Origin: a virus
Lineage: Duplodnaviria; Heunggongvirae; Uroviricota; Caudoviricetes
Virus record (IMG/VR): IMGVR_UViG_2698536485_000016
Coordinates: 1-22,503 of that record
Reading direction: 5' to 3' (one strand)
Length of the DNA: 22,503 nt
Shown piece by piece: positions 3,305-22,503 of the stretch (positions are counted from its first letter, which is position 1; the number at the start of each line of letters is the position of its first letter). The notes under the pieces are model-generated. The model was not told the origin of the DNA. It saw only the letters and a list, made by a program, of their open reading frames with translations, and did no database searches. The position numbers and the translations under genes were made by a program.

Positions 3305-3656
3305 CCATTCCAAAGCTCATCTACGGGTGGGCTTGATAATGAAACCGTGATTTACATCCCCACAATCCGGGTATGTAAAAGATAGTTCAGGCGAGAACAG
3401 ATTTAACTAAATCTGTGCACCACCAGTTGCGGCAGTACAGCGAAACAACCCAAGCCAGAAAGTGGGGAAATAACACTGGCAGCCACTGAAAGATGAACCT
3501 CCAGCCTTAAGGCAAAAAAGATTCTTTGTGGTGGCGGACTGATGGAAAGACATCGGTTATTGCAGAGGCCATTCAATGAGTGGTCTCGACAATGGCTTAT
3601 ACCCTACACGGGATAACTTAATTGATATCCCTTTTAACGGATAAACGGAGCCAACA

Positions 3657-3899: not shown

Positions 3900-3978
3900 A
3901 CATGGCAACTCAAGGTTTCGACAACCCATCCAAATTCCGCGATGAATGGGATAAGCAAGCAGAAGGGAAATAATCAAT

Positions 3979-4404
3979 ATGGCGACTGAGAAAAAGAATG
4001 TCGGTCGCCCTTCGGATTACCTACCGGAGGTGGCTGATGATATCTGTGCGCTGCTTTCCTCCGGGGAAAGTCTGGTTAAGGTTTGCAAGCGCCCCGGCAT
4101 GCCAGCAAAGGCTACTGTATTTCGCTGGCTGTCAGAGCATGAAGAATTTAGAGACAAGTACGCGAAGGCAACTGAGGCACGAGCTGATTCTATTTTCGAA
4201 GAGATATTCGAAATTGCTGACACTGCGATTCCAGATGCTGCTGAGGTGGCAAAGGCAAGACTTCGCGTTGATACCCGCAAATGGGCGCTGGCCCGAATGA
4301 ATCCCCGTAAGTATGGCGACAAGGTAACTAACGAGCTTGTCGGCAAAGACGGCGGCGCAATCCAGATTGAAACATCACCGATGAGCACTCTATTCGGAAA
4401 ATGA
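3979..4404 (+). CDS. Terminase small subunit (Sf6 gp1-like)
   Basis: 141-aa ORF immediately upstream of, and overlapping (ATGA), the large terminase; N-terminal DNA-binding-like region; matches my recollection of Sf6-type small terminase. Confidence 0.85.
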   Translation: MATEKKNVGRPSDYLPEVADDICALLSSGESLVKVCKRPGMPAKATVFRWLSEHEEFRDKYAKATEARADSIFEEIFEIADTAIPDAAEVAKARLRVDTRKWALARMNPRKYGDKVTNELVGKDGGAIQIETSPMSTLFGK

Positions 4405-5813: not shown

Positions 5814-5815
5814 AC

Positions 5816-7942
5816 ATGGCAGAGACATTAGAGAAAAAACATGAGCGGATCATGCTCAGGTTTGACCGCGCCTATTCTCCACAGAAGGAAGTGCGCGAAA
5901 AGTGCATTGAAGCTACGAGGTTTGCTCGTGTCCCCGGAGGTCAATGGGAAGGAGCAACGGCGGCTGGAACTAAGCTTGATGAGCAGTTCGAGAAGTATCC
6001 TAAGTTTGAAATCAATAAGGTAGCAACTGAACTTAACCGCATCATTGCAGAATACCGCAATAACAGAATAACCGTTAAGTTTCGTCCTGGTGACAGAGAG
6101 GCAAGCGAAGAGTTAGCCAATAAATTAAATGGTCTGTTCCGTGCTGACTACGAAGAAACTGATGGCGGTGAGGCTTGCGATAATGCATTTGACGACGCTG
6201 CTACTGGTGGTTTCGGTTGCTTCCGTTTGACGTCGATGCTGGTCAATGAATACGACCCCATGGACGATCGTCAGCGTATTGCTATTGAACCAATATACGA
6301 CCCGTCGCGCTCTGTGTGGTTTGACCCTGACGCTAAGAAGTACGACAAATCTGACGCGTTGTGGGCGTTCTGTATGTATTCGTTGTCACCTGAAAAATAT
6401 GAGGCTGAATACGGAAAGAAACCTCCTACTTCTCTGGATGTAACGTCTATGACCAGTTGGGAATATAACTGGTTTGGTGCAGATGTTATTTACATAGCGA
6501 AGTATTACGAAGTTCGTAAAGAGTCTGTTGACGTCATCAGTTATCGACATCCAATCACTGGAGAGATTGCAACATACGACAGTGATCAGGTTGAAGATAT
6601 TGAAGATGAACTGGCAATAGCTGGATTTCAGGAAGTGGCAAGGCGCTCAGTGAAGCGCCGTCGTGTGTATGTATCCGTAGTGGATGGTGATGGTTTCCTT
6701 GAGAAACCTCGACGTATTCCTGGTGAGCATATCCCCCTCATCCCGGTTTATGGAAAACGCTGGTTCATTGATGACATTGAGCGTGTCGAAGGGCACATTG
6801 CAAAAGCAATGGATCCACAGCGTTTGTACAACCTTCAGGTTTCAATGCTGGCTGATACTGCAGCGCAAGACCCCGGTCAGATCCCTATAGTTGGCATGGA
6901 GCAAATTCGTGGACTTGAGAAGCACTGGGAGGCTCGCAACAAGAAACGCCCAGCGTTCTTGCCGTTGCGCGAAGTGAGAGATAAATCTGGCAACATTATC
7001 GCTGGAGCTACCCCGGCAGGATATACACAGCCTGCGGTTATGAATCAGGCATTGGCTGCATTACTACAGCAAACCAGTGCTGATATTCAGGAGGTTACAG
7101 GCGGCAGTCAGGCCATGCAGCAGATGCCAAGTAATATTGCTCAGGAAACGGTTAACAACTTGATGAACAGAGCAGATATGGCTTCGTTTATCTATCTGGA
7201 TAATATGGCGAAAAGTCTTAAACGCGCTGGTGAAGTATGGCTGTCAATGGCGCGTGAAGTGTACGGTTCAGAACGTGAAGTGCGCATCGTTAACGAAGAT
7301 GGAAGTGATGATATCGCTGTCCTGAGCGCACAGGTTGTTGACAGGCAAACAGGGGCTGTTGTTGCGTTAAATGACCTTTCTGTCGGTCGATACGATGTGA
7401 CGGTTGATGTTGGACCAAGCTACACAGCACGACGTGATGCAACGGTTTCTGTACTGACAAATGTCCTTAGCTCTATGCTTCCAACAGACCCAATGCGCCC
7501 GGCAATTCAGGGTATTATTCTGGACAATATCGATGGCGAAGGCCTTGATGACTTCAAAGAGTACAACCGAAACCAACTGCTGATATCTGGTATTGCAAAA
7601 CCACGCAATGAGAAAGAGCAGCAGATTGTTCAACAGGCGCAAATGGCAGCACAAAGCCAGCCAAATCCTGAAATGGTTCTCGCTCAGGCGCAAATGGTAG
7701 CAGCGCAGGCAGAAGCGCAAAAAGCAACTAACGAAACTGCTCAAACTCAAATCAAAGCATTTACTGCCCAGCAGGATGCGATGGAGAGTCAGGCAAACAC
7801 TGTCTATAAACTGGCTCAAGCCAGAAACATCGATGACAAAGCAGTGATGGAGGCAATACGCCTTCTGAAAGATGTCGCCGAGTCACAACAACAGCAATTC
7901 CAGTCACCACCACAGTCACCGGCAGACTTAATGCCGAGTTAA
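5816..7942 (+). CDS. Portal protein (P22 gp1 / Sf6 gp3-like)
   Basis: Large ORF directly after the terminase. I chose the ATG at 5816 (708 aa, start MAETLEKK, 2 nt after the terminase stop) rather than the extended 732-aa ORF-track start at 5744, which overlaps the terminase. Gln/Ala-rich C-terminal barrel-like tail. Confidence 0.88.
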   Translation: MAETLEKKHERIMLRFDRAYSPQKEVREKCIEATRFARVPGGQWEGATAAGTKLDEQFEKYPKFEINKVATELNRIIAEYRNNRITVKFRPGDREASEELANKLNGLFRADYEETDGGEACDNAFDDAATGGFGCFRLTSMLVNEYDPMDDRQRIAIEPIYDPSRSVWFDPDAKKYDKSDALWAFCMYSLSPEKYEAEYGKKPPTSLDVTSMTSWEYNWFGADVIYIAKYYEVRKESVDVISYRHPITGEIATYDSDQVEDIEDELAIAGFQEVARRSVKRRRVYVSVVDGDGFLEKPRRIPGEHIPLIPVYGKRWFIDDIERVEGHIAKAMDPQRLYNLQVSMLADTAAQDPGQIPIVGMEQIRGLEKHWEARNKKRPAFLPLREVRDKSGNIIAGATPAGYTQPAVMNQALAALLQQTSADIQEVTGGSQAMQQMPSNIAQETVNNLMNRADMASFIYLDNMAKSLKRAGEVWLSMAREVYGSEREVRIVNEDGSDDIAVLSAQVVDRQTGAVVALNDLSVGRYDVTVDVGPSYTARRDATVSVLTNVLSSMLPTDPMRPAIQGIILDNIDGEGLDDFKEYNRNQLLISGIAKPRNEKEQQIVQQAQMAAQSQPNPEMVLAQAQMVAAQAEAQKATNETAQTQIKAFTAQQDAMESQANTVYKLAQARNIDDKAVMEAIRLLKDVAESQQQQFQSPPQSPADLMPS

Positions 7943-7955
7943 CCAGGAGTAATCA

Positions 7956-8840
7956 ATGGAAAACGAACTGATCATCGACGGTCAGGTTATTGACCTGTCT
8001 GAAACACAGGAAAATGCAGAAGAAACCATCATCCAAACAGAGTCACAGCCTGAGAATGAAAGCCAGGATGACAACGGTAAAGAGGTGGCAACTGAGCCTG
8101 AAAAAACCGAAGAGACACCAGAAGATTACGCCTTGCGTATTGGTGATGAAGAAATTCAGCTTAACGCTGACGATGATGATCACATTGACGGGCAACCTGC
8201 ACCGCAATGGGTGAAAGATCTTCGCAAAGGCTTCAAAGAAACACAGAAAGAAAACCGTGAGTTGCGCCGCCAGCTTGAGGAAGCATTAGCCAAGCCAGCG
8301 GAACATCAGCAACCACAACCAGACGCTATTCCACCAAAACCGACTCTTGAGTCGTGTGATTATGACGAACAGGCGTTTGAACAGGCATTGACTGATTGGC
8401 ATGAGAAAAAAGGCCGTGTCGAACAGCAGCAGCAACAAAAACTACGTCAGCAACAGGAATACCAACAGCGTTTCCAGCAAAGGGTAGAAGCGCATAAACA
8501 ACGGGCAGCCAAACTTCCTGTGAAAGATTATCAGGAAATGGAGGCCATTGTTCTTAGTGAGCTACCACCAATTCAGCAGGAAATCATCATTCACTGTGCA
8601 GACGAAGGCTCTGAACTACTCGCCTATGGCTTAGGTAAGAGCCAGCAATTACGCCAGCGTGTAGCCGCTGAGACAGATCCAATTCGCGCAGCATTCCTCT
8701 TGGGGCAGATTAGCAAACAGGTAAGCCTTGCTCCAAAACCAAAGAAAGCCATCAAGCCAGAGCCGGAAGTACGTGGTGGCGGTGCTGATGCGAAACAAGA
8801 CGAATTCAACAAATTATGCCCCGGCGCAAAAATCGAATAA
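7956..8840 (+). CDS. Scaffolding protein
   Basis: 294-aa highly charged, Glu/Gln-rich, helical-looking protein between portal and coat; SD aggag upstream. Confidence 0.75.
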   Translation: MENELIIDGQVIDLSETQENAEETIIQTESQPENESQDDNGKEVATEPEKTEETPEDYALRIGDEEIQLNADDDDHIDGQPAPQWVKDLRKGFKETQKENRELRRQLEEALAKPAEHQQPQPDAIPPKPTLESCDYDEQAFEQALTDWHEKKGRVEQQQQQKLRQQQEYQQRFQQRVEAHKQRAAKLPVKDYQEMEAIVLSELPPIQQEIIIHCADEGSELLAYGLGKSQQLRQRVAAETDPIRAAFLLGQISKQVSLAPKPKKAIKPEPEVRGGGADAKQDEFNKLCPGAKIE

Positions 8841-8851
8841 GGAAAAGATAA

Positions 8852-10123
8852 ATGCCTAACAATCTCGACAGTAACGTCAGTCAAATCGTTCTGAAAAAAT
8901 TCCTTCCGGGTTTTATGTCAGATTTAGTTCTGGCGAAAACCGTAGACCGTCAGTTGCTGGCAGGTGAAATCAACTCCAGCACTGGCGATAGCGTTAGCTT
9001 TAAACGTCCGCATCAATTCTCATCCCTCCGTACTCCCACTGGTGATATTTCAGGGCAAAATAAAAACAACCTGATCTCAGGTAAAGCTACGGGGCGTGTA
9101 GGTAACTACATCACTGTTGCTGTTGAATATCAGCAACTGGAGGAAGCGATCAAGCTTAACCAACTGGAAGAAATTCTCGCGCCGGTTCGCCAGCGAATCG
9201 TTACCGACCTTGAAACAGAGCTTGCTCACTTCATGATGAATAACGGTGCGTTGTCACTTGGTAGCCCCAATACTCCAATCACCAAATGGTCTGATGTTGC
9301 GCAGACGGCATCTTTCCTGAAAGACCTCGGCGTTAATGAAGGTGAAAACTATGCTGTAATGGATCCATGGTCTGCACAGCGACTTGCTGATGCGCAGACT
9401 GGTTTGCATGCTTCAGATCAATTGGTTCGTACTGCATGGGAGAACGCACAGATCCCAACCAATTTTGGCGGCATTCGCGCACTGATGTCTAATGGGCTTG
9501 CCTCTCGTACGCAGGGGGCATTTGGCGGAACACTGACAGTCAAAACACAGCCAACTGTTACCTATAACGCAGTTAAAGACTCATACCAGTTCACTGTAAC
9601 ATTGACCGGAGCGACAACCAGCGTTACAGGTTTCCTGAAAGCTGGTGATCAGGTTAAATTCACCAATACCTACTGGCTGCAACAGCAGACCAAACAGGCG
9701 TTGTATAACGGAGCCACACCAATTAGCTTCACTGCAACGGTTACTGCTGATGCTAATTCAGACAGCAGTGGCGATGTGACGGTTACGCTTTCTGGTGTTC
9801 CGATTTATGACACTACAAACCCGCAGTACAACTCTGTAAGTCGTCAGGTAGCGGCAGGTGATGCCGTATCTGTAGTAGGCACTGCTAGCCAGACAATGAA
9901 GCCAAACCTGTTCTATAACAAGTTCTTCTGTGGACTTGGCTCTATCCCACTGCCGAAACTGCACAGTATTGATTCTGCTGTTGCAACATATGAAGGTTTC
10001 TCCATCCGCGTACATAAATACGCAGATGGCGATGCCAACGTGCAAAAAATGCGCTTTGACTTACTGCCTGCATATGTGTGCTTTAACCCTCACATGGGCG
10101 GTCAGTTCTTCGGTAATCCGTAA
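8852..10123 (+). CDS. Major capsid (coat) protein, Sf6 gp5-like
   Basis: 423-aa ORF after the scaffold gene, good SD (aaggaaaagataaATG), followed by a strong intrinsic terminator as is typical for coat genes. Confidence 0.85.
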   Translation: MPNNLDSNVSQIVLKKFLPGFMSDLVLAKTVDRQLLAGEINSSTGDSVSFKRPHQFSSLRTPTGDISGQNKNNLISGKATGRVGNYITVAVEYQQLEEAIKLNQLEEILAPVRQRIVTDLETELAHFMMNNGALSLGSPNTPITKWSDVAQTASFLKDLGVNEGENYAVMDPWSAQRLADAQTGLHASDQLVRTAWENAQIPTNFGGIRALMSNGLASRTQGAFGGTLTVKTQPTVTYNAVKDSYQFTVTLTGATTSVTGFLKAGDQVKFTNTYWLQQQTKQALYNGATPISFTATVTADANSDSSGDVTVTLSGVPIYDTTNPQYNSVSRQVAAGDAVSVVGTASQTMKPNLFYNKFFCGLGSIPLPKLHSIDSAVATYEGFSIRVHKYADGDANVQKMRFDLLPAYVCFNPHMGGQFFGNP

Positions 10124-10127
10124 TAAC

Positions 10128-10155
10128 AAGGGGCTTACGCCCCTTTTATGTTTTA
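10128..10155 (+). terminator. Intrinsic terminator or attenuator after the coat gene
   Basis: Hairpin aaggggc-ttac-gcccctt (10128-10145) followed by TTATGTTTT. Confidence 0.6.
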
Positions 10156-10165
10156 AGGAAACAAT

Positions 10166-10351
10166 ATGGATCGCATGAGTGTATTCCTTGCCGCAGATAA
10201 CGAATCCGGGCATGTACAGGCCGTTATCGCAGAAAAAGACTTCCAGTTTTTCGAAAAGTTGGGCTTTGTTGCCTCAGTTGATGAATTGAAACCGACCAGT
10301 AAGCGAGGTCGTAAGGCGGCAGACAATGGCAACAGTACTGACAAAGGGTGA
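10166..10351 (+). CDS. Hypothetical small protein (61 aa)
   Basis: ORF with SD (aaggaaacaatATG) just after the coat terminator; its 3' end overlaps the start of the gp4-like gene by 26 nt; no recognised family. Confidence 0.4.
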   Translation: MDRMSVFLAADNESGHVQAVIAEKDFQFFEKLGFVASVDELKPTSKRGRKAADNGNSTDKG

Positions 10352-10808
10352 GATCGTCCTTTTTGCGCTTCGTAAGTTTGCTATTGCTTCTAATGCATCG
10401 CTGACTGATGTTGAGCCGCAATCAATTGAAGATGGTGTAAATGATCTGGAAGATATGATGTCCGAGTGGATGATTAACCCCGGCGAGATTGGTTACGCTT
10501 TCGCAACTGGAGATGAGCAGCCATTACCAGATGATGAGTCAGGTCTTCCAAGAAAATACAAACACGCAGTAGGCTATCAGTTATTGCTGAGAATGCTATC
10601 TGATTACAGCCTTGAGCCAACTCCGCAAGTTCTCAGTAACGCCCAACGCTCATATGATGCCTTGATGACCGACACTCTGGTTGTTCCTTCAATGCGACGA
10701 CGTGGAGATTTTCCTGTAGGGCAGGGTAATAAATATGACGTGTTCACATCTGACCGATATTATCCAGGCGATCTTCCTCTGATTGATGGCGATATCCCAA
10801 ACGCATAG
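10326..10808 (+). CDS. Head-to-tail adaptor / tail accessory factor (P22 gp4-like)
   Basis: 160 aa; N-terminal region (TKGEIVLFALRKFAIASNASLTDVEPQS) resembles P22 gp4 as I recall it; conserved position after coat. Confidence 0.8.
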   Translation: MATVLTKGEIVLFALRKFAIASNASLTDVEPQSIEDGVNDLEDMMSEWMINPGEIGYAFATGDEQPLPDDESGLPRKYKHAVGYQLLLRMLSDYSLEPTPQVLSNAQRSYDALMTDTLVVPSMRRRGDFPVGQGNKYDVFTSDRYYPGDLPLIDGDIPNA

Positions 10809-10816
10809 GTGAATAA

Positions 10817-12235
10817 ATGCCTATTCAGCAACTTCCGCTTATGAAAGGTGTCGGCAAAGACTTTAGAAACGCCGACTATATCGACTATCTGCCAGTGAAT
10901 ATGTTGGCTACACCCAAAGAAATCCTGAACAGCAGCGGATATCTTCGCTCATTCCCGGGCATTGCCAAACGTTCTGATGTGAACGGCGTATCGCGCGGAG
11001 TTGAGTACAACATGGCGCAGAGTGCTGTTTATCGCGTGTGTGGCGGCAAGCTGTACAAAGGAGAAAGTGAAGTCGGTGATGTTGCCGGAAGTGGTCGTGT
11101 ATCAATGGCGCATGGTCGGACATCTCAGGCTGTAGGCGTTAATGGCCAACTGGTCGAGTATCGTTATGATGGCACGGTTAAAACAGTCTCAAACTGGCCT
11201 ACAGACAGCGGATTCACGCAGTATGAGTTAGGTTCTGTTCGTGACATTACGCGCTTACGCGGGCGTTATGCGTGGTCAAAAGACGGCACTGATTCATGGT
11301 TTATCACTGACCTTGAAGACGAATCGCATCCTGACCGCTACAGCGCACAATATCGCGCAGAATCGCAGCCGGACGGTATCCTCGGCATCGGCACATGGCG
11401 AGACTTCATCGTCTGCTTTGGTTCATCGACGATTGAATATTTCTCCCTGACTGGTGCAACCACCGTTGGTGCAGCTTTGTATGTCGCACAGCCATCACTG
11501 ATGGTGCAAAAAGGCATCGCCGGGACTTACTGCAAAACGCCATTCGCTGATTCTTATGCGTTCATCAGCAATCCGGCAACTGGTGCGCCGTCTGTGTATA
11601 TCATCGGCTCCGGGCAGGTATCACCAATCGCCAGCGCGAGCATTGAGAAAATCCTCCGCTCCTACACTGCTGATGAACTGGCTGATGGCGTGATGGAATC
11701 GTTGCGGTTTGATGCTCATGAGTTGCTGATTATCCATCTTCCGCGCCATGTCCTCGTATACGACGCATCTTCAAGCGCCAATGGTCCGCAATGGTGTGTA
11801 CTGAAAACAGGTCTGTATGACGATGTGTACCGCGCTATCGACTTCATTTACGAAGGCAATCAGATAACGTGCGGCGATAAGCTGGAATCCGTGACCGGGA
11901 AATTGCAGTTCGACATCAGCAGCCAGTACGACAAGCAACAGGAACACCTGCTGTTTACTCCGTTGTTCAAAGCGGATAACGCCAGATGCTTCGATCTGGA
12001 GGTGGAATCATCCACTGGCGTAGCTCAGTACGCCGACCGCCTGTTCCTCTCTGCAACCACTGACGGCATAAATTACGGACGTGAGCAGATGATTGAACAG
12101 AATGAACCGTTCGTTTACGACAAACGCGTTTTGTGGAAGCGAGTAGGGCGCATCAGGAAAAATGTCGGCTTCAAATTGCGCGTTATCACGAAGTCACCTG
12201 TCACTCTGTCTGGCTGCCAGATAAGGATTGAGTAA
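10817..12235 (+). CDS. Tail hub / tail accessory factor (P22 gp10-like)
   Basis: 472-aa ORF, the same length as P22 gp10 by my recollection, in the conserved position between the gp4-like and needle genes. Confidence 0.8.
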
Positions 12236-12936
12236 TGGCGGATTCGAATCTCAATGTGCCGGTAATCATCCAAGCTACGCGGCCCGATACATCAGTCCTT
12301 CCACGCAATATCTTCTCGCAGTCGTATCTGCTTTACGTTATCGCACAGGGCACTGATGTTGGTAACGTGGCTAACAAGGCCAACGAGGCCGGACAGGGCG
12401 CTTATGATGCACAGGTCAGGAACGATGAGCAGGATGTTATTCTGGTCGATCACGAAGAAAGAATTCGTCAGCTCCGCATCGACGTAGACGACCATGAAAT
12501 CCGTATTACTGCAAATACCAATGCAATCGCGTCGCTGGATGTCAGACTAACCACGGCTGAAGGTGAAATAGTCACCTTGCAGGCTGATGTCAGTGCTCTT
12601 GATGGTAGAGTGACGGAGGCTGAAGGAAATATTTCTGCATTGCAGGACGATTACGTATCGAAAACAGCAACAGCAACACAATCGCTGGCATCCCCCCTCA
12701 ACGTAACAACATCCTATTCAGTCGGCGGCACCAAGGTTATCGGTGCTCGCCAGACAGGATGGACAGCGGCAACCGGAACGGCACTCCTCGGCGCATTCAA
12801 CGCTAACCAGTCATACACTGTCGGCACTACGTACACGCAATCCGAAGTCTCAGCACTCGCTACAGGTTTGCAGCAGGCGCGGCAGCGTATTCTGGCGCTT
12901 GAAACGGCACTTAGATTACATGGGCTGATTGACTGA
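12235..12936 (+). CDS. Tail needle / plug protein (P22 gp26-like)
   Basis: 233 aa; conserved N-terminus ([37 protein letters not shown]) and heptad-repeat coiled-coil core; start overlaps the upstream stop (TAATG). Confidence 0.9.
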
Positions 12937-13391
12937 TGATTACATTCAAACCAACGCGAAACATCGACCTGATCGAAGCAGTAGGAAATCACCCTGACAT
13001 CATCGCCGGGAGCAACAACGGTGATGGATACGACTACAAACCTGATTGCAGTTACTTTGAGGTGAACGTGCACGGTCAGTTTGGCGGCATTGTTTACTAT
13101 CAGGAGATTCAGCCGCTGACCTTCGATTGCCACGCCATGTACCTGCCAGAGATTCGCGGCTTCAGCAAGGAAATCGGGCTGGCGTTCTGGCGATACATTC
13201 TGACTAACACCACCGTTCAGTGCGTCACATCGTTCGCTGCACGCAAATTCCGCCACGGTCAGATGTATTGCGCAATGATTGGCCTTAAGCGTGTAGGAAC
13301 CATCAAGAAATACTTCAAAGGCGTGGATGACGTGACGTTTTACAGCGCCACACGCGAAGAACTAATCGACTTCCTGAATCACGGGAGATAG
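12936..13391 (+). CDS. gp14-like virion assembly / infectivity protein
   Basis: 151-aa ORF in the position of P22 gene 14 between the needle and ejection-protein genes; start overlaps the upstream stop (TGATG). Confidence 0.6.
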   Translation: MITFKPTRNIDLIEAVGNHPDIIAGSNNGDGYDYKPDCSYFEVNVHGQFGGIVYYQEIQPLTFDCHAMYLPEIRGFSKEIGLAFWRYILTNTTVQCVTSFAARKFRHGQMYCAMIGLKRVGTIKKYFKGVDDVTFYSATREELIDFLNHGR

Positions 13392-13393
13392 CC

Positions 13394-14086
13394 ATGTTAT
13401 ATGCATTTAAGCTGGGCAGAAAACTGCGCGGCGAGGAACCTTATTGCCCTGAAAAAGGCGGGAAAGGTGGTAGCTCTGATAAAAGCGCAAAGTATGCAGC
13501 AGAAGCCCAGAAGTATGCCGCAGACCTGCAAAATCAGCAGTGGCAGACGATCATGAAAAACCTTGCTCCGTTCACGCCGCTTGCGGAGCAGTATGTTAAA
13601 CAGCTTCAGAATCTTTCCAGTTTAGAAGGTCAGGGGCAGGCACTTAATCAGTATTACAATTCTCAGCAGTATAAAGACCTTGCAGGTCAGGCTCGTTACC
13701 AGAGTCTTGCTGCTGCGGAGGCGACTGGCGGACTTGGTTCGACAGCTACAAGCAATCAACTTGCTACGATTGCTCCGACTCTCGGTCAGTCGTGGTTATC
13801 AAACCAGATGAGCAATTACAACAATCTGGCAAACGTTGGGCTTGGTGCGCTGCAAGGTCAGGCAAACGCTGGGCAGACATACGCCAACAACATGAGCAGC
13901 ATTGCACAGCAAAGTGCAGCACTTGCCGCTGCTAATGCCAATAAACCATCAAGTCTTCAGACTGCAATTAGCGGTGGCACGTCTGGTGCGATTGCCGGTG
14001 CAGGTCTTGCCAGTCTTTTGGGAACATCAACGCCTTGGGGCGCTGGCATTGGTGCTGGTATCGGATTGCTTGGCTCGTTGTTTTAA
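13394..14086 (+). CDS. Ejection (DNA-transfer) protein, P22 gp7-like
   Basis: 230 aa; Gly/Ala/Gln-rich C-terminal half ending in a hydrophobic segment; first of the three ejection-protein genes. Confidence 0.75.
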   Translation: MLYAFKLGRKLRGEEPYCPEKGGKGGSSDKSAKYAAEAQKYAADLQNQQWQTIMKNLAPFTPLAEQYVKQLQNLSSLEGQGQALNQYYNSQQYKDLAGQARYQSLAAAEATGGLGSTATSNQLATIAPTLGQSWLSNQMSNYNNLANVGLGALQGQANAGQTYANNMSSIAQQSAALAAANANKPSSLQTAISGGTSGAIAGAGLASLLGTSTPWGAGIGAGIGLLGSLF

Positions 14087-14095
14087 GGGGTAATC

Positions 14096-15391
14096 ATGGC
14101 TACTTGGCAAGGAACAAACGGCGGATTGTTGGCTGGTATCGGCGGCGTCAACTCAAACGCTCCGAGCGTAAATGACATCGGCAATACGCTTCAGCTTATC
14201 AGGCAGAACAATGATATTGAGCGTTCAGGCGCTAACAATGTTGGGCTGACTGCTTTGCAAGGCCTTTCAGGTATTGCAGGGGTGTTTCAGCAGGAAAAGC
14301 AGGCTCAGCGGCAGAAAGAATTTCAGCAGGCGTACGCTAATGCTTATGCGTCTGGTGATCGCGGTGCTTTGCGTCAGTTGGCTACTCAATATCCAGACCA
14401 GATTGAATCCGTTCGTAAAGGCATGGGATTCATTGATGAAGACCAGCGTAATTCTATCGGCACCTTAGCGGCTGGTGCACGCCTTGCGTCATCGTCTCCA
14501 GAAGCAATGCAATCATGGCTGCAAAACAACGCCAAGGAACTGACTCGCGTCGGTGTTGACCCTAACAGCGTTGCTCAGATGTATCAGCAGAACCCTTCAG
14601 GATTTGGTGAGTTTGTTGATCACCTTGGAATGACCGCGCTTGGTCCGATTGATTACTTCAATGTTCAGGACAAGATGGCTGGTCGTGAGATTGACCGAGG
14701 CAGGCTGGCAGAGACAATCCGCAGCAATCAGGCCGGAGAAGCACTAACAGCTCGAGGTCAGGACATCCAGATACGTGGACAGAACATCAGCGCACAGAAT
14801 GCTGCTCTTTCCCGCGAAATACAAAGAGCAGAATTACAAGAAAAGGCTCTGGACAGACAGATAGCCAGAGAAAGCAATCAGTTAAAGCTTGAAGAGCTAA
14901 AACAGAAACAGGCAGATGTTAGGCAAAAGGCTGACATAGCCCGCGCTGACAGGCAGGCCGCCGCTCAGGGTGCAGTTGATACGTTCAGCACCGCGCTTGA
15001 TTCTCTCAACGAGATAGAGCAAAGCCCCGGCCTTTCAAAAGCAGTAGGAATTCGCTCAGCGTTTCCGACAGTTCCTGGCTCTGATGCGGCTAACTTTGAA
15101 GCAAGGCTCGACACCTTTAAAGCTCAAACATTCCTTCCTATGGTGCAGTCCCTTAAGGGGATGGGTGCTCTTTCAGATGCTGAGGGTAAAAAATTATCCG
15201 ATGCGGTTGGTGCCCTAAGCCCCAAAATGAGTGAAAAGGCTTTTCGTGACTCTATCGGAAAGATTAGAAATCAGCTTGAAAGCAAGTTGAGCACTGTTAA
15301 AAAACAGTTTGATTATCAGGAGCCGGTTCAGAATATGCCAGGGCAACAATCTACTACTGGCAGTAACTTTTCTTCACTATGGGGTGATTAA
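14096..15391 (+). CDS. Ejection (DNA-transfer) protein, P22 gp20-like
   Basis: 431-aa ORF, second of three consecutive internal virion protein genes; Gln-rich with coiled-coil-like stretch. Confidence 0.7.
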   Translation: MATWQGTNGGLLAGIGGVNSNAPSVNDIGNTLQLIRQNNDIERSGANNVGLTALQGLSGIAGVFQQEKQAQRQKEFQQAYANAYASGDRGALRQLATQYPDQIESVRKGMGFIDEDQRNSIGTLAAGARLASSSPEAMQSWLQNNAKELTRVGVDPNSVAQMYQQNPSGFGEFVDHLGMTALGPIDYFNVQDKMAGREIDRGRLAETIRSNQAGEALTARGQDIQIRGQNISAQNAALSREIQRAELQEKALDRQIARESNQLKLEELKQKQADVRQKADIARADRQAAAQGAVDTFSTALDSLNEIEQSPGLSKAVGIRSAFPTVPGSDAANFEARLDTFKAQTFLPMVQSLKGMGALSDAEGKKLSDAVGALSPKMSEKAFRDSIGKIRNQLESKLSTVKKQFDYQEPVQNMPGQQSTTGSNFSSLWGD

Positions 15392-17388
15392 TGGCTAAAG
15401 CATGGAAAGATGTTATCGCCTCTCCACAGTATCAGGCGTTAGCACCAGAACAAAAAGCGCAGGCTCAGGAGCAATACTTCAATGAAGTCGTGGCCCCGCA
15501 AGCCGGAGAAAATGCAGAGCAGGCTAAGCAAGCTTTCTATGCTGCCTATCCATTGCCATCTGTGCAGCAAGTGGAGACACAGCAACCAGTTGCACAGCAA
15601 CAACCACAGCAAAGTGGATTTATGTCTGATCTTGGCGAAGCAGTAAAAGAGACTGGTCGCGGACTGGTGCAGGCTGGCGTGAACGTGGCAAACATACCTG
15701 CATCAGTTGCCGATGCTGTAACAAGCGCGGCGGCTTGGGCTGGCGGTAAACTCGGCATTGGCGATGGTACATATCAACCAGCGCCACGAGTAACAACGCA
15801 GGGATTAGAGCAGGACTTTGGCCTTCGGCAAGGTGCGCTGACTCCACAAACGACAGAGGGAAGGGTATTTGCTGAAGCATTGCCTTACCTCACACCTGCT
15901 GGCGTTGAGAGAGCGGCGGTACAGGCACCAACACTTGCTGGTCGAATTGCTCAGGGGGCAACTCGCCTTCTAGCAGAAAACGCAGTTGGATCACTTGCTG
16001 CAAATAGTGCGAAAGATGATGCGGAAGCACTCGCCACCGATTTAGGCGTTGGTGTACTTGCTGGCGGTGCTATTAACGCTGCTGGACGTGGATTAGGTGC
16101 TGCTTATCGTGGCGTTCGTGGTGCTATCACGCCAGAAGCGCAGCAGGCTATCAGATTTGCAGAGCGTGAAGGAGTTCCTCTGCACACCACAGACCTGTTA
16201 CAACCCACTTCCCGCGTCGGAAAAATGGCGCAGACTACAGCAGAAAATATCCCTCTGGCTGGCACAAGCGGAATGAGAGCAACGCAACAGGAAGCGAGAA
16301 GCCAGTTGGTGCAGAGATTTGCTGATAAATTTGGTGAGTATGATCCAGCGGTTGTTATTGACAGCCTTAAAGCGAAAACATCAGGAATTCGTCGTGCTGC
16401 CGGTAATCGACTGGAGCAGGTTCAGAATGCTATGGCTGGAGTAAACATTCAACCTGCGCGAGCAATTCAGCAGATTGATACAGAAATATCTAACCTGCAG
16501 AAGCTTGGTAAGGTTGCTGATAACGAGACTATTTCAAAACTTCAGTCATATCGTGATGAGCTTGTTCGCAATGCTGGTCCTGATGGTCCGGTCAATCTGG
16601 ATTTGAAGCAATTAAGCGATCTGCGCAGCCAGTTCAGAATGGACGTGAAGGGTGAGCGACCAGTGTTACCAAACCGTTCCGATGCTGCCATTCAGCGAGT
16701 TTACAAGGCGATGACCGACGATATCAATGGTGCCATTGGTCAGAATCTTGGCAATGATACTCTTCGTAAATATCAGCAGGCCAATGCCGTCTACGCTGAC
16801 GAAGCGGCGAAACTAAAGAATACCAGGCTGAAGAATGTTCTCATGAAAGGCGACCTGACGCCGGAAGTTGTCAACAACATGCTATTCAGCAAGAACAAAT
16901 CGGAAATTAAGACTCTGTATAACTCAGTTGGTCGTGTTGGCAGGGCGCAAATGCGCAATGGCATCATTGGAAAGGCGATGGAGAAATCAGGTGGTTCCCC
17001 TGACCAGTTCCTTCGGCAACTTAACATCCTGCAAAACCAGACTGGCATCACATTTAAAGGTCAGGAAGCCGCTTATCTGAAAGGATTGAAAAACTACCTG
17101 CAATCCACGCAACAGGCTGCAAAAGCAGCAGTAACAACACCAACAGGGCAGCAAACCATCCCGTTCATTATCGGATATGGGACGGCAATGAACCCGGCGA
17201 CAACTGGCGCAGCGGTAAGCTACGGACTTCTTACTCGCGCCTATGAGAGCGAGCCATTCAGAAATGCAATGCTCCGAATGGCAAACACCCCACGCGGATC
17301 AACAGCGTTTGAGAAAGCCATGCAGCAGGCGCAAAAGGCCATTAACGCCATTACTCAGGGGGCTAAGTCTGATGCGTTGTCAGAATAG
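15391..17388 (+). CDS. Ejection (DNA-transfer) protein, P22 gp16-like
   Basis: 665-aa ORF, third ejection-protein gene, start overlapping the upstream stop (TAATG); Gln-rich N-terminal region. Confidence 0.7.
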   Translation: MAKAWKDVIASPQYQALAPEQKAQAQEQYFNEVVAPQAGENAEQAKQAFYAAYPLPSVQQVETQQPVAQQQPQQSGFMSDLGEAVKETGRGLVQAGVNVANIPASVADAVTSAAAWAGGKLGIGDGTYQPAPRVTTQGLEQDFGLRQGALTPQTTEGRVFAEALPYLTPAGVERAAVQAPTLAGRIAQGATRLLAENAVGSLAANSAKDDAEALATDLGVGVLAGGAINAAGRGLGAAYRGVRGAITPEAQQAIRFAEREGVPLHTTDLLQPTSRVGKMAQTTAENIPLAGTSGMRATQQEARSQLVQRFADKFGEYDPAVVIDSLKAKTSGIRRAAGNRLEQVQNAMAGVNIQPARAIQQIDTEISNLQKLGKVADNETISKLQSYRDELVRNAGPDGPVNLDLKQLSDLRSQFRMDVKGERPVLPNRSDAAIQRVYKAMTDDINGAIGQNLGNDTLRKYQQANAVYADEAAKLKNTRLKNVLMKGDLTPEVVNNMLFSKNKSEIKTLYNSVGRVGRAQMRNGIIGKAMEKSGGSPDQFLRQLNILQNQTGITFKGQEAAYLKGLKNYLQSTQQAAKAAVTTPTGQQTIPFIIGYGTAMNPATTGAAVSYGLLTRAYESEPFRNAMLRMANTPRGSTAFEKAMQQAQKAINAITQGAKSDALSE

Positions 17389-17477
17389 CTTCGCAAACAC
17401 CAGGAACGTGCAAAAACCAAATATGTAGAACGCAATATTCAGCATATCTCTGTGCATAAATCCTCCGTAACGGATGG

Positions 17478-17738
17478 TTATCTGCTGTCTTTTTTATATA
17501 GCTTCTTGAGCGTATCAAAGACAATTTTCTTAACCATATCAGATTGTTGTTCTGCCATACGCTCTGCATCGTCAATGTAAACTGATGCAGAGCTTTGTTT
17601 ATCCAATGATTCCTCAATCGCTGCAATTATCTCTGAGTTCAGCGACCTGTTATTCATCTTCGCACGCTGCTTAATTTTCGCGTGGAGTTCATGCGGAAGT
17701 CTCAAGTGAAACTGCGCCTCGTCGTATTTGCTGTACAT
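17478..17738 (-). CDS. mnt: Mnt-like repressor (ribbon-helix-helix, Arc/MetJ superfamily)
   Basis: Translation (FHLRLPHELHAKIKQRAKMNNRSLNSEII...DAERMAEQQSDMVKKIVFDTLKKLYKK) aligns along its length with P22 Mnt as I remember it. ATG at 17738 chosen (SD GGTGAGG upstream); an upstream ATG at 17771 is possible. Confidence 0.8.
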   Translation of the reverse strand: MYSKYDEAQFHLRLPHELHAKIKQRAKMNNRSLNSEIIAAIEESLDKQSSASVYIDDAERMAEQQSDMVKKIVFDTLKKLYKKDSR

Positions 17739-17869
17739 CCTTGATGCCTCACCAGTTGGGTGGAATGGCATCGTAACCTACTGGATAAATACTCAATAAT
17801 ACCATTTTGGTATGCAATCACATCATGGTTGCATCATATCATTCGTCTGGAGCAATGAAATGTCAGATA

Positions 17870-18370
17870 TCACCTACTCAACAGATGGTCAGCAACCATG
17901 TTTGCTGCCTTATAAGCTATAGCAGCTTCATCAATGGTGTTGAATCTCCCAAGGGTTATGTTTTTACCTGAGACATTTATCTGAGCTTGCCATTGATTTC
18001 TGGCTTGACAGAAAGTTACCCCCTTGATCCCAGCATTGCTATTTCGAGGTCCGACATTTAATGCATTTACGACTCTGCTGACATCCCTAAGGTTTGAGAT
18101 TGCGTTATTTCTTCTGTTTCTATCAATGTGGTCAATCTCTTGTTTGGGCCATTCGCCATATACATACAGCCAGGCAAGTCTATGTGCAAAATATCTTACG
18201 CCATCAATATTAATTGCGTTATATCCATAAGAAATTGTGCCAGCAACTTTCCCAACAGCACCTCTGGCGCTTAATTTCTTTTTCCAAGTGAAAATTCCTG
18301 TTTCTTTATTGTAATCGAGAACCTCCATAAGGCGCTCCCGAGTTACTACCTCGTGACGTCTCTTACTCAT
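17870..18370 (-). CDS. HNH endonuclease with C-terminal AP2-type DNA-binding domain (homing-endonuclease-like)
   Basis: HNH_3-like motif ([38 protein letters not shown]) followed by an AP2-like segment (GIKGVTF...WQAQI...[22 protein letters not shown]). ATG at 18370 with strong SD (GGAG, 6-nt spacer) chosen over the TTG start at 18412 in the ORF track. Confidence 0.85.
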
Positions 18371-18392
18371 TATTTTCTCCGGAATGTTTATT

Positions 18393-20060
18393 ATGCCAGA
18401 ACAATTATACAACGTTGTTGTTTCACAACCAAGTCAGTTATTTACTTTAGCTCGCTCGTTTAAAGCAAATGCCAATGGCAAAATTTATATCGGAAAAATT
18501 GACACTGATCCGGTAAATCCTGAAAACCAGATCCAGGTTTATGTGGAGAATGAAGACGGCTCTCACGTTCCTGTTTCGCAACCAATCATCATTAACGCTG
18601 CTGGTTACCCTGTATATAACGGACAGATTGCCAAGTTTGTAACCGTGCAAGGCCATTCTATGGCTGTTTATGATGCGTACGGCGCGCAGCAGTTTTATTT
18701 TCCGAATGTACTGAAGTACGACCCGGATCAGCTTGAGCAGCGTCTTGCATCATCAATAGGTTCTTCCATGGTTGGCATTACCGATGGAAGGACAGTGCAT
18801 GATTTTATATCTGTTGATGACTATCAGAGAATTGGTGATATCCGTGGTTACGGGGCGACAAATGAAAACGTAAACCCTGTCAACATTGCCGTTGCCACAG
18901 GTGAGGCCAATGGTCTACTGAAGGTGCCTAATGGAGTATGGAGCGGTAATTTTGAGTTAAAAAATAAAACTAGCATAACTGGTGAATCCATAACATCAAC
19001 AGTTGTTAACGTTCCTATAAACACGATCGGAATAAAGCCTGAGGGCTCTGACGTTAGAGGGATTACTATATCAAACATGAATCTCCAAGTTAACGGATCT
19101 GTTGCTGGCGGTCCTCCTGTTGGTAGCGGGGTCGGAATAGACATGTCTTTTTGCGGAAAGGCAGTTAACTGTGAGTTTAACAACCTTTATCTCGATTTCT
19201 TTGATATTGGTTACAACGCTGGATATGCTGATTTTTCAAATATTTATAACAATATGAGGTGCAATAACAACCGAATCGGGATTAACCTATCCAGTAACGG
19301 AACAATTATTCAAAACGTGTTCAATGGGTGTTATGTTGCAAACTGGACGGCTTATGCCGTGAAAGTTTCTGGCGCTAGCAACCAGATATTCAACGCGCTT
19401 AACATGGGGCATAACGGATCCGCCAATGCTTATTTCCTGCAGATAGATACGAACTCAAGAGGAATCATATTTAATCAACCTAACTTCGAAATGGACGTTG
19501 CAAACGGGAAAATTACAGCAGGAGGCCAGGCTATCGTGGTCGCCTCTAGTTCTGAGGTTACATTTAACTCCCCGACATTCAACAGGGTTAACGCTGCAGG
19601 GGCAAATGCCTACCTGTTCCGGGTTAGGGGTAACGCTGTAGTACGTATAAACGACCCTCAAATCTACAACGACGATGGCACAATAGGTCACCTAATTATC
19701 AGTGATGAAGCTGTTGTTTATCTCAATGATCCAAATCGAATATTCACAGTAATTACTATCCAAGGTAATGGGAGGCTAATACGTGTTGACGAGAAGATAT
19801 CAAACTCCCCTAACTATACAAACATTCTTACTTTAAAATCTGGAGACATAATTAACTTTGGATTCTATGCAAGATATGCAATGGCGGTTCCAGATTTTCA
19901 CTCCAATACTATGCCATCACCATTCAAGTACGCAGTGAACTTTGACACTTACCATAGCAGTGGAACTGCCATTGCTCGAGTGTATGATACAACTACAGGA
20001 AATGGAGTATCAAACATCAATGTTACATGTTTCGTACAGGCGTGGAGAGAGGATAGATAA
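18393..20060 (+). CDS. Tailspike protein: conserved P22-type head-binding N-domain plus divergent parallel beta-helix receptor-binding domain
   Basis: N-terminal ~115 aa ([53 protein letters not shown]...) match the P22/Sf6 tailspike particle-binding domain; the remainder is Asn/Gly/Val/Ile-rich repeats typical of a beta-helix. Start could be 18384 or 18393. Confidence 0.85.
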
Positions 20061-20090
20061 AAATAGGGCGGTCTCCCCGCCCTATTTTTA
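20061..20090. terminator. Bidirectional intrinsic terminator between the convergent tailspike and acyltransferase genes
   Basis: Perfect 9-bp stem atagggcgg / ccgccctat with a 5-nt loop, flanked by AAAA on the left and TTTTT on the right. Confidence 0.7.
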
Positions 20091-21155
20091 TACTGTAACT
20101 AAATTGTCTTCATTTCTATTGGTTTTTCTTTTTAATTTAAGAAAATGTATTTCAAAAAGATAGTATGACGCAGTTGATACTATATATGCGATAGCAAACC
20201 CACATGCTATTATCACAGCATTATTGTTTACTCCAAACAAGGAGGCCATTTTGTTTGCAATTGAAAAACACAGCAAATGCCACATATACAAACCATAACT
20301 TATCTTTCCTGTAAATGTTAATGGCTTTAATGATAATGCTTTTGTTATTATTTGTTTTTTCCCTAGCACACTCCACTTGTAAATGAAAAAAATTGCAGAT
20401 GAAAAAATCATCCCAAACGCTGTAAACATATACCAGCATTTCCCAGCCCAATCTACAGGGTTCCAAAAAGCATTAAGACCAACAGAATTTATTCCATTAA
20501 GAACCAGCCCAACACCTGCTATAAAAGTTAAAAATCCTGATTCATATGCGTACTTCTCATCTTTTATCTTTGAAAACAGAGCGCCAAGAACTAACATGTC
20601 AATGCAACTGATAAGAGTTACATTTACAATGTATGGGTTTCCATCAGTGATTTGAAATATAAAATATCTTGATATACTTGATGTTATTATTAGTATAATA
20701 AAAATCAGATTCATATTCTTTTTGTTTATGAAAAATATGAATAGAGGCCAAAGCCAGTAAAATTGTTCTTCCACTGCAAGAGACCAGGTGTGCCCCAAAA
20801 TTCCAGGTGTTGTAACATTTATTCCTATATAATAGTTTTGTAGATAAGTTATAAACCACAAATAACCATCCGTTGGTTTCCCAGTTGCAATTAGAAGAAT
20901 AAAGTTAACAAGTAGGTAAGCATAAAATAACGGGAATATTCTAAGCGATCTATTTATAAGAAATCGTTTAATATAGTTACTAAAACCAGAGTCTTTATCC
21001 TCGATAAGGATTGAGGTAATTAAGAAACCAGATAAGCAAAAGAACAGCGGAACTCCAGACCAACCAAGAGAAAATCCTGAAACTTTGGCATGAAAAAGCA
21101 TTACAATGAGCACCGCAATACCTCTCACACCATCTAAAGATTGTATATGTTTCAT
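20088..21155 (-). CDS. Integral-membrane acyltransferase family 3 protein (O-antigen acetylase-like, probable lysogenic conversion gene)
   Basis: 355-aa polytopic membrane protein; N-terminal motif LDGVRGIAVLIVMLFH and multiple hydrophobic segments typical of the family; AT-rich; located between tailspike and integrase as in serotype-converting phages. Confidence 0.85.
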   Translation of the reverse strand: MKHIQSLDGVRGIAVLIVMLFHAKVSGFSLGWSGVPLFFCLSGFLITSILIEDKDSGFSNYIKRFLINRSLRIFPLFYAYLLVNFILLIATGKPTDGYLWFITYLQNYYIGINVTTPGILGHTWSLAVEEQFYWLWPLFIFFINKKNMNLIFIILIITSSISRYFIFQITDGNPYIVNVTLISCIDMLVLGALFSKIKDEKYAYESGFLTFIAGVGLVLNGINSVGLNAFWNPVDWAGKCWYMFTAFGMIFSSAIFFIYKWSVLGKKQIITKALSLKPLTFTGKISYGLYMWHLLCFSIANKMASLFGVNNNAVIIACGFAIAYIVSTASYYLFEIHFLKLKRKTNRNEDNLVTV

Positions 21156-21345
21156 GCTAAAAATCCATATTCTACGGGAAGCGGGAGTCTATCAGATTTA
21201 GTTGATATTATCTATATAGACTAACTAGATGTTATCTAGCGATTGACTGTCATTCTATGTATATTTTCACGCCTGTTATCATATAACTTGATCATTTGGT
21301 ATTTTGAGAGATTAACTTCTTTTGTTTCCAGTGTGGCTATGCCAA

Positions 21346-22503
21346 TTACTCCACCTTTTCATCAAGCCAGTCCGCCCACCACTGCATCATTTCTCTGCGT
21401 TTATCGAGATACTGAGCATGGTTGTAAATTCCGCGCACAGATCCGCCGTTGGCATGTGCAAGTTGCACTTCAATAGCGTCAGCAGGCCATTCGTGCTCGT
21501 TCATAATCGTGCTGAATTCATGCCTGAATCCGTGACCGCTTTCCAGACCCTCATAGCCGATTTGTTTAATCACAAGCAATACCGCGTTCTCGCAGATTGG
21601 CTTCTTCTTATCGTTGCGCCCGGCAAAAACAAACTCTGATACTGGTTTAGTGATGGAGCTTAGCGTAGTGAGAAGTTCAACCACCTGGTCTGACATAGGA
21701 ACAACATGAATCTTGCGTCCCTTCATCACATTGGCGTCGATGGTGATAATCCTGTTTTCAAAATCGACGTTCTTCCATAGCATGGAACGAAGCTCTTTTG
21801 TTCTGAGGGCTGTGTAGCGTAAAACTTTGGTCGCAATGAGCGATACGATACTTCCTGAAAATGTTGCCAGTGCTTTGTTAAATGCCGGGATCTGGTCTGC
21901 AGGAAGAAACGGGAAGTTCTTCTTGCGGTATCCTTTCATGGCGTCTGCAAGGTCAGGTGCCGGGTTATATTTAGCCCTTCCGGTGACAATAGCGTAACGG
22001 AAAACCTCGCCGCATCTTCTGCGGGCTTTGTTGGCTCGCTCCATTGCACCGCGATCTTCAAATCTGCGGATTACTTCCAGCAGTTGCATCGGCTCAATAT
22101 CCTGAATTTCAAGGCCGCCGATGATAGGTAAAATGTCGTCATCAAACATTTTTGCAAGTTCATTTGCATAGCCTACTGACCAGACTTGCTTCTTGTGCTC
22201 GTACCATTCCTTGTAAATCGCACTAAAGGAATTGTTGTTAGACGAAGCCTTTTTCGCTTTTACCGGATCGATGCCAACCGAGATGTCTTTCCTCGCAGTC
22301 CATGCTTTATCCCTTGCCTCCTGCAAAGTCATAAGCGGGTATTTTCCGACGGTCAGGATTTTCTCCTTACCGTCAATCTTGTAGCGAAGCTGCCATACCT
22401 TTTTCCCGGATACAGGGACATAAAGGTACAGGCCATTACCATCGAGTAGGCGGTATGGTTTTTCTTTCGGCTTAGCTGCTTCAATCTGCTTAACGGTGAG
22501 CAT
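21346..22503 (-). CDS. int: Tyrosine integrase, P4-like (N-terminal DUF4102-type arm-binding domain)
   Basis: N-terminus MLTVKQIEAAKPKEKPYRLLDGNGLYLYV typical of the family; C-terminal catalytic motifs HGFRHEF and RGIYNHAQY. The start codon occupies 22501-22503, so the upstream region is outside the window. Confidence 0.9.
   Translation of the reverse strand: MLTVKQIEAAKPKEKPYRLLDGNGLYLYVPVSGKKVWQLRYKIDGKEKILTVGKYPLMTLQEARDKAWTARKDISVGIDPVKAKKASSNNNSFSAIYKEWYEHKKQVWSVGYANELAKMFDDDILPIIGGLEIQDIEPMQLLEVIRRFEDRGAMERANKARRRCGEVFRYAIVTGRAKYNPAPDLADAMKGYRKKNFPFLPADQIPAFNKALATFSGSIVSLIATKVLRYTALRTKELRSMLWKNVDFENRIITIDANVMKGRKIHVVPMSDQVVELLTTLSSITKPVSEFVFAGRNDKKKPICENAVLLVIKQIGYEGLESGHGFRHEFSTIMNEHEWPADAIEVQLAHANGGSVRGIYNHAQYLDKRREMMQWWADWLDEKVE

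Follow-up and report, generated by a model that had tools for sequence, protein, structure and literature searches.

The tailspike gene and the convergent acyltransferase gene beside it in a 22,503-nt stretch of an Escherichia coli prophage (IMG/VR record IMGVR_UViG_2698536485_000016; the whole analysed stretch is referred to as the window) probably constitute a lysogenic-conversion module, one that recognizes, and modifies, a polysaccharide on the surface of its host. The architecture is already known. What is new is an uncharacterised clade of acyltransferases built solely of the acyltransferase family 3 domain (AT3-only), together with a rare family of tailspike receptor domains; deposited phage genomes lack both, and few complete E. 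coli genomes carry either. Likewise new is the evidence, from comparison of the sequences, that the two genes have moved jointly between P22-like and T7-like prophages.

The tailspike, the acyltransferase and the hairpin between them

Translation of the tailspike (the coordinates of all features are collected in Table 2) probably starts at the ATG at 18393, which gives 555 aa as in the annotation of phage Kapi1, in preference to 18384, from which the open reading frame (ORF) comprises 558 aa. Residues 4-116 of the 558-aa ORF match the Head_binding profile PF09008 (3.5e-64, 214.5 bits), and this domain is about 61-86% identical to the N-terminus of Sf6, with the N-terminus of a related tailspike, L007, falling within 61-75%. 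An AlphaFold model of the receptor domain is all beta (predicted local distance difference test, pLDDT, 84.5), and its best Foldseek matches in the PDB are phage tailspike depolymerases, among them the Sf6 tailspike protein (TSP), CBA120 TSP2 and Acinetobacter tailspikes (probability 1.00, with TM-scores of only 0.3-0.55 and identities of 10-14%). Judged by this modelled fold, the receptor domain is probably a glycan depolymerase. The acidic residues D156, D165, E251, D253, D331 and D403 (domain numbering) are invariant in an alignment of receptor domains.

The family to which the receptor domain belongs comprises 17 clusters in 5.8 billion proteins and is found joined to three adaptors, namely the P22 Head_binding domain, the T7-fibre N-terminus and, in siphovirus-type prophages, Tail_spike_N. 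A tblastn search of phage genomes with the receptor domain yields nothing beyond a C-terminal match of 80 residues to tailspikes of Dickeya phages, a scan of genome contigs recovers two Morganella loci only, and a sequence search of the PDB with the tailspike profile matches the N-terminal adaptor only. The PHROG label assigned to the tailspike, 'colanic acid degradation', was judged uninformative because it is the shared head-binding domain that contributes the bulk of the score.

The convergent gene encodes an integral-membrane family 3 acyltransferase, as originally predicted. Residues 5-331 match PF01757 Acyl_transf_3 (5.7e-25; 88.5 bits against a cut-off of 31; profile positions 2-325/326), and the PHROG matches are phrog_3333 'O-acetyltransferase' (1.9e-39) and phrog_6705 'O-antigen acetylase' (3.5e-35). 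PF01757 is the only Pfam domain present; the protein has no fused C-terminal SGNH domain and therefore belongs to the AT3-only class. A Kyte-Doolittle scan gives about 9-10 hydrophobic segments, where ten transmembrane helices are expected of AT3 proteins. In these proteins an R-X10-H motif in the first transmembrane helix (Arg14/His25 in OafB) and an RXXR motif on the cytoplasmic face of the third are essential (PMC9833829). The window protein contains R11-GIAVLIVMLF-H22, R69-S-L-R72 followed by IFP, and WSLAVEEQFY; R-X10-H, RXXR and WSLAVEEQFY are invariant in 17 clade members.

The nearest protein cluster, P0001 (99% identical, 341 aa), has about 73 member sequences from E. coli; the assemblies that carry it include E. 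coli 1-182-04_S4_C1 and runs ERR4036155 and SRR30758797. In its annotation translation begins at codon 15, an internal GTG, which leaves out codons 1-14 (21114-21155 of the window). We prefer the 355-codon ORF from the ATG at 21155 because the GTG start would delete the essential R11. In one of four near-identical copies of the gene, at about position 6102 of L018 (a contig shared with L031; about 20838 of the window), a 1-nt insertion outside any homopolymer run (CAAAAC to CAATAAC) breaks the frame at codon 106, and this copy is either a pseudogene or the product of a sequencing error.

The original prediction likened the arrangement to that of oac in phage Sf6, a likeness that does not extend to alignment of the enzyme with Oac: identity is 29% over 85 residues (E = 1e-4), only residues 1-75 align, and orthology is rejected. 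Full-length relatives in deposited phage genomes reach at most ~29% identity by tblastn, a distant blastn search of the complete E. coli genomes matches 2 genomes at 69%, and a sequence search of the PDB gives no match to the acyltransferase.

The stop codons of the two genes (20058-20060 and 20088-20090) are separated by 27 nt and lie in a hairpin of the sequence ATAAAAATAGGGCGG-TCTCC-CCGCCCTATTTTTAT. Its folding energy is -25.2 kcal/mol on the plus strand and -24.0 on the minus strand (z about -5.9), with none of 200 shuffled sequences equally stable, and a U-run, TATTTTTAT, follows 3' of the stem on either strand. These properties uphold the prediction that the two genes share a bidirectional terminator, which is still a putative one. 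The output of a simple consensus terminator scanner does not include the hairpin. GC-rich hairpins stand at the equivalent place in two related loci, L003 and L010, with a different loop and a partly different stem.

Block inheritance and base composition

For each homologue of the receptor domain we surveyed the convergent gene that comes next downstream (Table 1). A glycan modifier occupies this slot in seven of the ten receptor-domain lineages, as an AT3-only gene in three, as gtrABC in two (L023 and L013) and as an AT3-SGNH gene in two (L022 and L011).

Table 1. Genes found in the slot downstream of and convergent with receptor-domain homologues.
Receptor-domain identity	Locus	Gene in the slot
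100%	window, L009, L017-L019	AT3-only gene, same clade
85%	L003 (P22-like)	AT3-only gene, acyltransferase 71% identical
77%	L010/L020 (Trabulsiella, T7-like structural module)	AT3-only gene, acyltransferase 73% identical
72%	L023	gtrABC
65%	L013/L021 (Enterobacter cancerogenus)	gtrABC
42% and 43%	L022 and Morganella L011	AT3-SGNH gene (PF01757 + PF19040 SGNH)
57%	L015 (multi-tailspike phage)	no modifier
51%	L016	no modifier, integrase next
42%	L012	no modifier, integrase next

The closest lineages share more than gene order. Between the window and the Trabulsiella locus L010, a single uninterrupted alignment of 2348 nt at 69.6% identity covers 18834-21163 of the window, hairpin included, and in L003 the whole tailspike is 84% identical to that of the window. 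Across the three cassette copies (window, L003 and L010), the nonsynonymous divergence (dN) ranges over 0.10-0.16 in the receptor domain and 0.21-0.27 in the acyltransferase, the window acyltransferase standing at 0.21-0.23 from those of L003 and L010, and the synonymous divergence (dS) is saturated, so that dN/dS of the closest pairs is not quantifiable. The combination of low dN with saturated dS indicates that receptor domain and acyltransferase are old, linked and under purifying selection.

A scan of IMG/VR for members of the acyltransferase clade at 36% identity or more returns 15 loci, at least 11 of which have a tailspike or tail-fibre gene as neighbour. Where the acyltransferase lies beside such a gene, adaptors and orientations vary, several phage types are represented, and the position is not only next to int. 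These surveys, conducted from both sides of the pair, thus indicate a linkage that is strong in close relatives and statistical, not obligatory, farther off. The content of the slot also turns over, as the frameshift in L018 and the slot of phage Kapi1 attest, the latter reduced to 34 codons left over from another acyltransferase. This reported remnant, Kapi1 hyp24, is unrelated to the window acyltransferase.

It may be, at slightly less than an even chance in our estimate, that receptor domain, terminator and AT3 gene form a self-contained exchange unit traded whole among unrelated temperate phages (P22-like, T7-like and siphovirus-type), so that recognition of a sugar and its masking in the lysogen would travel jointly. 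The masking half of such a unit would have been swapped over time (AT3-only, AT3-SGNH or GtrABC) and the recognition half kept, and the HNH endonuclease gene upstream of the tailspike may help to drive the exchange.

Two of the settings represented in Table 1 merit description in their own right. L013, L014, L021 and L023 (Enterobacter cancerogenus and a related contig) are siphovirus-type prophages in which a receptor domain of 65-72% identity is carried on Tail_spike_N and followed by convergent gtrABC; between the two lineages, GtrC conservation reaches only 80%. L010 (Trabulsiella odontotermitis JNGI01000178.1) contains an integrated T7-like module with an internal virion protein that bears a lytic transglycosylase domain, a large terminase and a T7-type fibre N-terminus. 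Its cassette is placed between the fibre and the lysis genes, and the host flank includes purL. To our knowledge, temperate T7-like prophages are not commonly described in Enterobacterales. Exact-sequence look-ups of P0001 and of the Trabulsiella acyltransferase, P0002, find neither on record.

The C-domain of the tailspike and the acyltransferase had been described as more AT-rich than structural genes of about 50% GC, and calculation by gene agrees. GC content is 41.8% for the receptor domain (18738-20060; GC at third codon positions, GC3, 38.8; z = -4.5) and 32.2% for the acyltransferase (20088-21155; GC1 36.2, GC2 33.7 and GC3 26.7 at the three codon positions; z = -9.6), compared with 49.4% for the structural genes (4401-17388). 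The z-scores refer to same-length segments over 1-17300 of the window (mean 49.1% GC, standard deviation 1.8, minimum 45.4). The interval that was proposed as an AT-rich cassette, 18740-21345, is indeed low in GC overall (37.4%), its spacer between acyltransferase and integrase included, and the integrase is back up to 47.4%. What does not hold is that composition singles out the C-domain or sets the limit of the tract. Low GC begins at about 17400 and takes in both an mnt-like gene and the HNH gene, and in AT content the head-binding domain equals the C-domain; position 18740 is therefore without a compositional boundary. It is a boundary of homology, with protein similarity to the Trabulsiella fibre beginning at tailspike residue 118, near nt 18744.

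The further proposal of import from a lower-GC donor is left without a source, since no donor taxon emerges from the list of homologues. An alternative that we regard as a serious one, if somewhat short of an even chance, is that low GC is a long-standing intrinsic property, arising from amino-acid bias and from a shared, long-circulating phage accessory pool, and not the mark of recent import. Tailspike genes of relatives are AT-rich as well (Sf6 44.0%, Kapi1 41.5%, L007 40.5% and L016 37.2% GC), as are the acyltransferase genes of L007 (33.7%) and Trabulsiella (33.3%), and the saturated dS points to an ancient divergence of the cassette copies. GC1 and GC2 of the window acyltransferase are low along with GC3, reflecting a protein rich in Phe, Ile, Leu, Asn, Lys and Tyr. 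The GC3 of this gene nevertheless lies beyond what amino-acid content alone would account for, and the acyltransferase of L003 has drifted up to 41.6% GC in a backbone of 55% GC. This suggests that composition responds to the genomic setting and that the low value in the window is a retained foreign signature. In L010 the composition of the block is kept, at 42.0% and 33.3% GC within a backbone of 54-57% GC.

Substrate and expression of the acyltransferase

In the mechanism that we propose, the tailspike, through its head-binding adaptor and beta-helix domain, would bind and probably cleave a host surface polysaccharide, most likely O-antigen. Following the AT3 model, R11, R69 and R72 would line the cytoplasmic cavity that acyl-coenzyme A (acyl-CoA) enters, and H22, placed close to the periplasmic face, would help to hand the acyl group, probably acetyl, to the sugar. 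If expressed in the lysogen from its own AT-rich upstream region, the acyltransferase would decorate the very polysaccharide that the tailspike uses, and this acylation would change the serotype and hinder adsorption or cleavage by the tailspike of the resident phage and by related tailspikes. The symmetric hairpin may end both transcripts, insulating the late operon from the conversion gene, and receptor domain, hairpin and acyltransferase would be passed on, and would move from one phage backbone to another, as a single AT-rich block.

The sequences themselves show the gene identities, motifs, composition, hairpin, block-wise homology and recurring slot; from these we infer the O-antigen substrate, the acetyl group, expression in the lysogen and superinfection exclusion. 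The P22-like tailspikes of Sf6, HK620 and Kapi1 use O-antigen, and O-antigen is favoured as the substrate both on this account and because the alternative occupants of the slot, gtrABC and AT3-SGNH, are modifiers of O-antigen type. By analogy with phage CUS-3, capsule is a possible substrate.

Several observations weigh against a conversion module. NCBIfam provides no equivalog for the acyltransferase and no close characterised enzyme was found, Sf6 Oac and the genes of deposited phages being as distant as described above. A homologue of 56% identity in Rouxiella is a lone chromosomal gene at glpG-glpE, a context that is silent on substrate. In other P22-like prophages of E. coli, acyltransferases of 56-58% identity stand next to an unrelated tailspike of 636 aa, and receptor domains of 51-57% identity occur with no adjacent modifier. 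Promoter-like matches in the spacer upstream of the acyltransferase do not rise above those in shuffled sequence, and no promoter is claimed. DNA of 32% GC may, moreover, be silenced by H-NS in E. coli.

Some of these same observations would fit a 'moron', a gene acting on another envelope glycan such as enterobacterial common antigen, colanic acid or capsule, osmoregulated periplasmic glucans or peptidoglycan. On that account the slot would be an insertion hotspot, tolerated at the end of the late operon beside int/att, with no functional tie to tailspike specificity. We consider this unlikely. AT3 proteins do act on many glycans (PMC9558356), the clade is paired with several unrelated receptor domains, the receptor-domain family has various modifiers, or no modifier, for partner, the Rouxiella homologue belongs to neither a phage nor an O-antigen cluster, and the best PHROG of the tailspike carries a colanic-acid label, though for the reason given above its score says little of the receptor domain. 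Contiguous co-inheritance across two phage types at saturated dS is, however, hard to explain without selection for linkage; the other occupants of the slot modify glycans of O-antigen type; and the tail-fibre genes that the clade adjoins differ in orientation and belong to several types of phage, the position beside int being only one of those occupied.

It is very improbable that the acyltransferase gene is silent or decaying cargo, whether as silenced AT-rich foreign DNA or as a gene being lost, with no present effect on the surface: the frameshifted copy in L018/L031, the remnant in the Kapi1 slot, the complete loss of slot content in L016 and the failure of the promoter scan to find a convincing candidate are compatible with such an account, but the window copy is intact over 355 codons with every essential AT3 motif, the clade-wide invariance of those motifs and a dN well below the saturated dS point to purifying selection, the 99% cluster holds its dozens of member sequences, and prophage accessory loci are reported to be often highly expressed in lysogens (PMC7067206).

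For the conversion module that we favour, we presume that the acyltransferase has its promoter and regulatory region in the spacer separating its start from the integrase stop. It contains weak sigma-70-like matches on the minus strand at 21279-21252 and 21235-21207, and two imperfect 21-nt direct repeats at 21194-21214 (AGATTTAGTTGATATTATCTA) and 21218-21238 (AGACTAACTAGATGTTATCTA), which are 24 nt apart, 76% identical and situated 40-80 nt upstream of the acyltransferase start. These repeats could be a regulator binding site or could be due to chance. No heptanucleotide-type repeat tract is present in or before the gene, and the spacer contains a single GATC. The spacer is common to near-identical prophages only; homology to L010 ends 8 nt upstream of the acyltransferase ATG.

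Prophage setting and comparison with known systems

The window covers the late half of an E. coli prophage of P22/Sf6 type (Lederbergvirus; Sf6/HK620/Kapi1-like). Its late genes include a Q antiterminator, holin, endolysin, Rz, Rha, an Sf6-type small terminase and a large terminase. Identities of further genes follow from the 99% identical L009, namely the portal, scaffold and coat genes, a P22_Tail-4 tail accessory gene, and the injection proteins gp7, Inj_translocase and gp16. The 3' part carries, in order, the mnt-like repressor, HNH endonuclease, tailspike, acyltransferase and IntS-type integrase genes (Table 2). In L009 the integrase is followed by host genes on the yfdC side of argW, the site also used by Sf6, HK620 and Kapi1, and the window integrase is 96-97% identical in nucleotide sequence to those of Sf6, HK620, CUS-3 and Kapi1.

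Table 2. Features of the tailspike-acyltransferase region of the window.
Feature	Position	Strand	Remarks
mnt-like gene	17478-17771		Arc + Mnt Pfam domains; GC 42.5%
HNH homing-endonuclease gene	17870..18370	-	PF13392 HNH_3 2.5e-16; phrog_99 7.4e-63; GC 40.5%
Tailspike N-terminal head-binding (virion adaptor) domain, P22-like	18393..18743	+	PF09008; GC 42.6%
Tailspike receptor-binding domain	18744..20060	+	predicted right-handed parallel beta-helix, then C-terminal beta domain; GC 41.8%
Symmetric GC-rich hairpin, putative bidirectional intrinsic terminator	20057..20091	both	A-run + T-run flanks; overlaps both stop codons
AT3-only integral-membrane acyltransferase, 355 aa, putative surface-polysaccharide (O-antigen) O-acyltransferase	20088..21155	-	PF01757
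AT-rich spacer	21156..21345	-	integrase stop to acyltransferase start, 190 nt; GC 33.7%
Tyrosine integrase, IntS/Sf6 type	21346..22503	-	PF00589, PF22022, PF13356; bounds the cassette

A megablast search of 50,697 phage records matches the flanks to Kapi1, HK620, Sf6 and CUS-3 and finds no near-identical DNA for the tailspike C-domain plus acyltransferase. Near-identical DNA in 5,426 complete E. coli genomes matches the head-binding part only, not the receptor domain and acyltransferase.

Between the gp16-like injection gene and the tailspike (17389-18383) the window has only the mnt-like gene and the HNH gene, with no arc/ant pair of the kind present in P22 and Kapi1; the equivalent region of L009 has the mnt-like gene alone. 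The HNH gene, which belongs to the AT-rich tract and lies outside the conserved cassette, is inserted within the opening codons of the tailspike gene. Upstream, at about 17860-17874, the ancestral start ATGTCAGATATCACC is still present, and the tailspike restarts at ATG 18393 with MPEQLYN in place of MSDITAN. This 566-nt insert is missing from L009 and is present in phage Kapi1 at 96.5% identity. At the 5' end of the tailspike gene, the HNH gene could promote exchange of tailspike modules. In L016, an HNH_3 gene likewise lies directly upstream of the tailspike.

At the other end of the window, the ~670 nt between the Q antiterminator and holin genes (529-1196) contain no ORF of at least 60 aa, tRNA or Rfam match and are presumably the late promoter and leader region. 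Scans of the whole window for tRNA and Rfam matches are empty.

The arrangement had been put forward as one of serotype conversion, and the gene order is the same as in the annotated records of Sf6, P22 and CUS-3, the part of the comparison that fails being orthology to Oac. In Shigella phage Sf6, gene 14 (the tailspike, an endorhamnosidase) is followed by a terminator, oac and int; the window shares its genus-level backbone and has the same order and orientation, with an argW-type integrase that is 96.7% identical in nucleotide sequence, and both acyltransferases are AT3-only with an RXXR motif. Sf6 oac encodes the O-antigen 2-O-acetylase of RhaI. It differs from the window gene in GC content (41.8% versus 32.2%), and the receptor domains of the two tailspikes are unrelated in sequence, though both are beta-helices, that of the window by prediction. 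Salmonella phage P22 has its gene 9 tailspike, a terminator, gtrCBA, attP and int; its O-antigen modifier occupies the same slot and is likewise convergent with the tailspike gene, and the P22 record assigns gtrABC to O-antigen conversion. Modification in P22 and BTP1 differs from that proposed here in being carried out by three glucosylation proteins or by the two-domain AT3-SGNH protein OafB, as opposed to a single AT3-only protein.

The P22-like phage CUS-3 of E. coli K1 has int, neuO and an endosialidase tailspike, and its integrase is 97% identical to that of the window. The likeness lies in the gene between int and tailspike, neuO, whose product, the polysialic-acid O-acetyltransferase, acetylates the substrate of that tailspike. 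We take NeuO to be a soluble hexapeptide-repeat enzyme that acts on capsule and varies through heptanucleotide repeats, whereas the window enzyme is a membrane AT3 protein. Nearer in sequence are P0006 and P0007 (E. coli P22-like prophages) and P0002, members of the AT3 clade at 56-73% identity with the essential motifs and a tailspike or fibre neighbour; the P0002 copy differs in lying between a T7-type fibre gene and lysis genes, not by the integrase. AT3-SGNH proteins, the alternative found in two lineages of Table 1, are of the OafA/OafB type, and both Sf6 Oac and BTP1 OafB block the tailspikes of their own phages (PMC9558356).

The biology proposed for the window is that of the established Sf6/P22 paradigm. 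Should modification of O-antigen prove true, carriers of this prophage would have an altered serotype and an altered phage susceptibility that cannot be predicted by typing of the O-antigen gene cluster, which would be relevant to in-silico serotyping, to glycoconjugate vaccines and to the prediction of host range in phage therapy. Because no member of the clade has been characterised and deposited phages contain none, a single biochemical characterisation would annotate many prophage genes. The slot, filled by a modifier in most receptor-domain lineages, and the adjacency of the AT3 clade to fibre genes in most viral contigs together offer a means of matching tailspikes that lack characterisation to the glycan modifications by which they are defeated.

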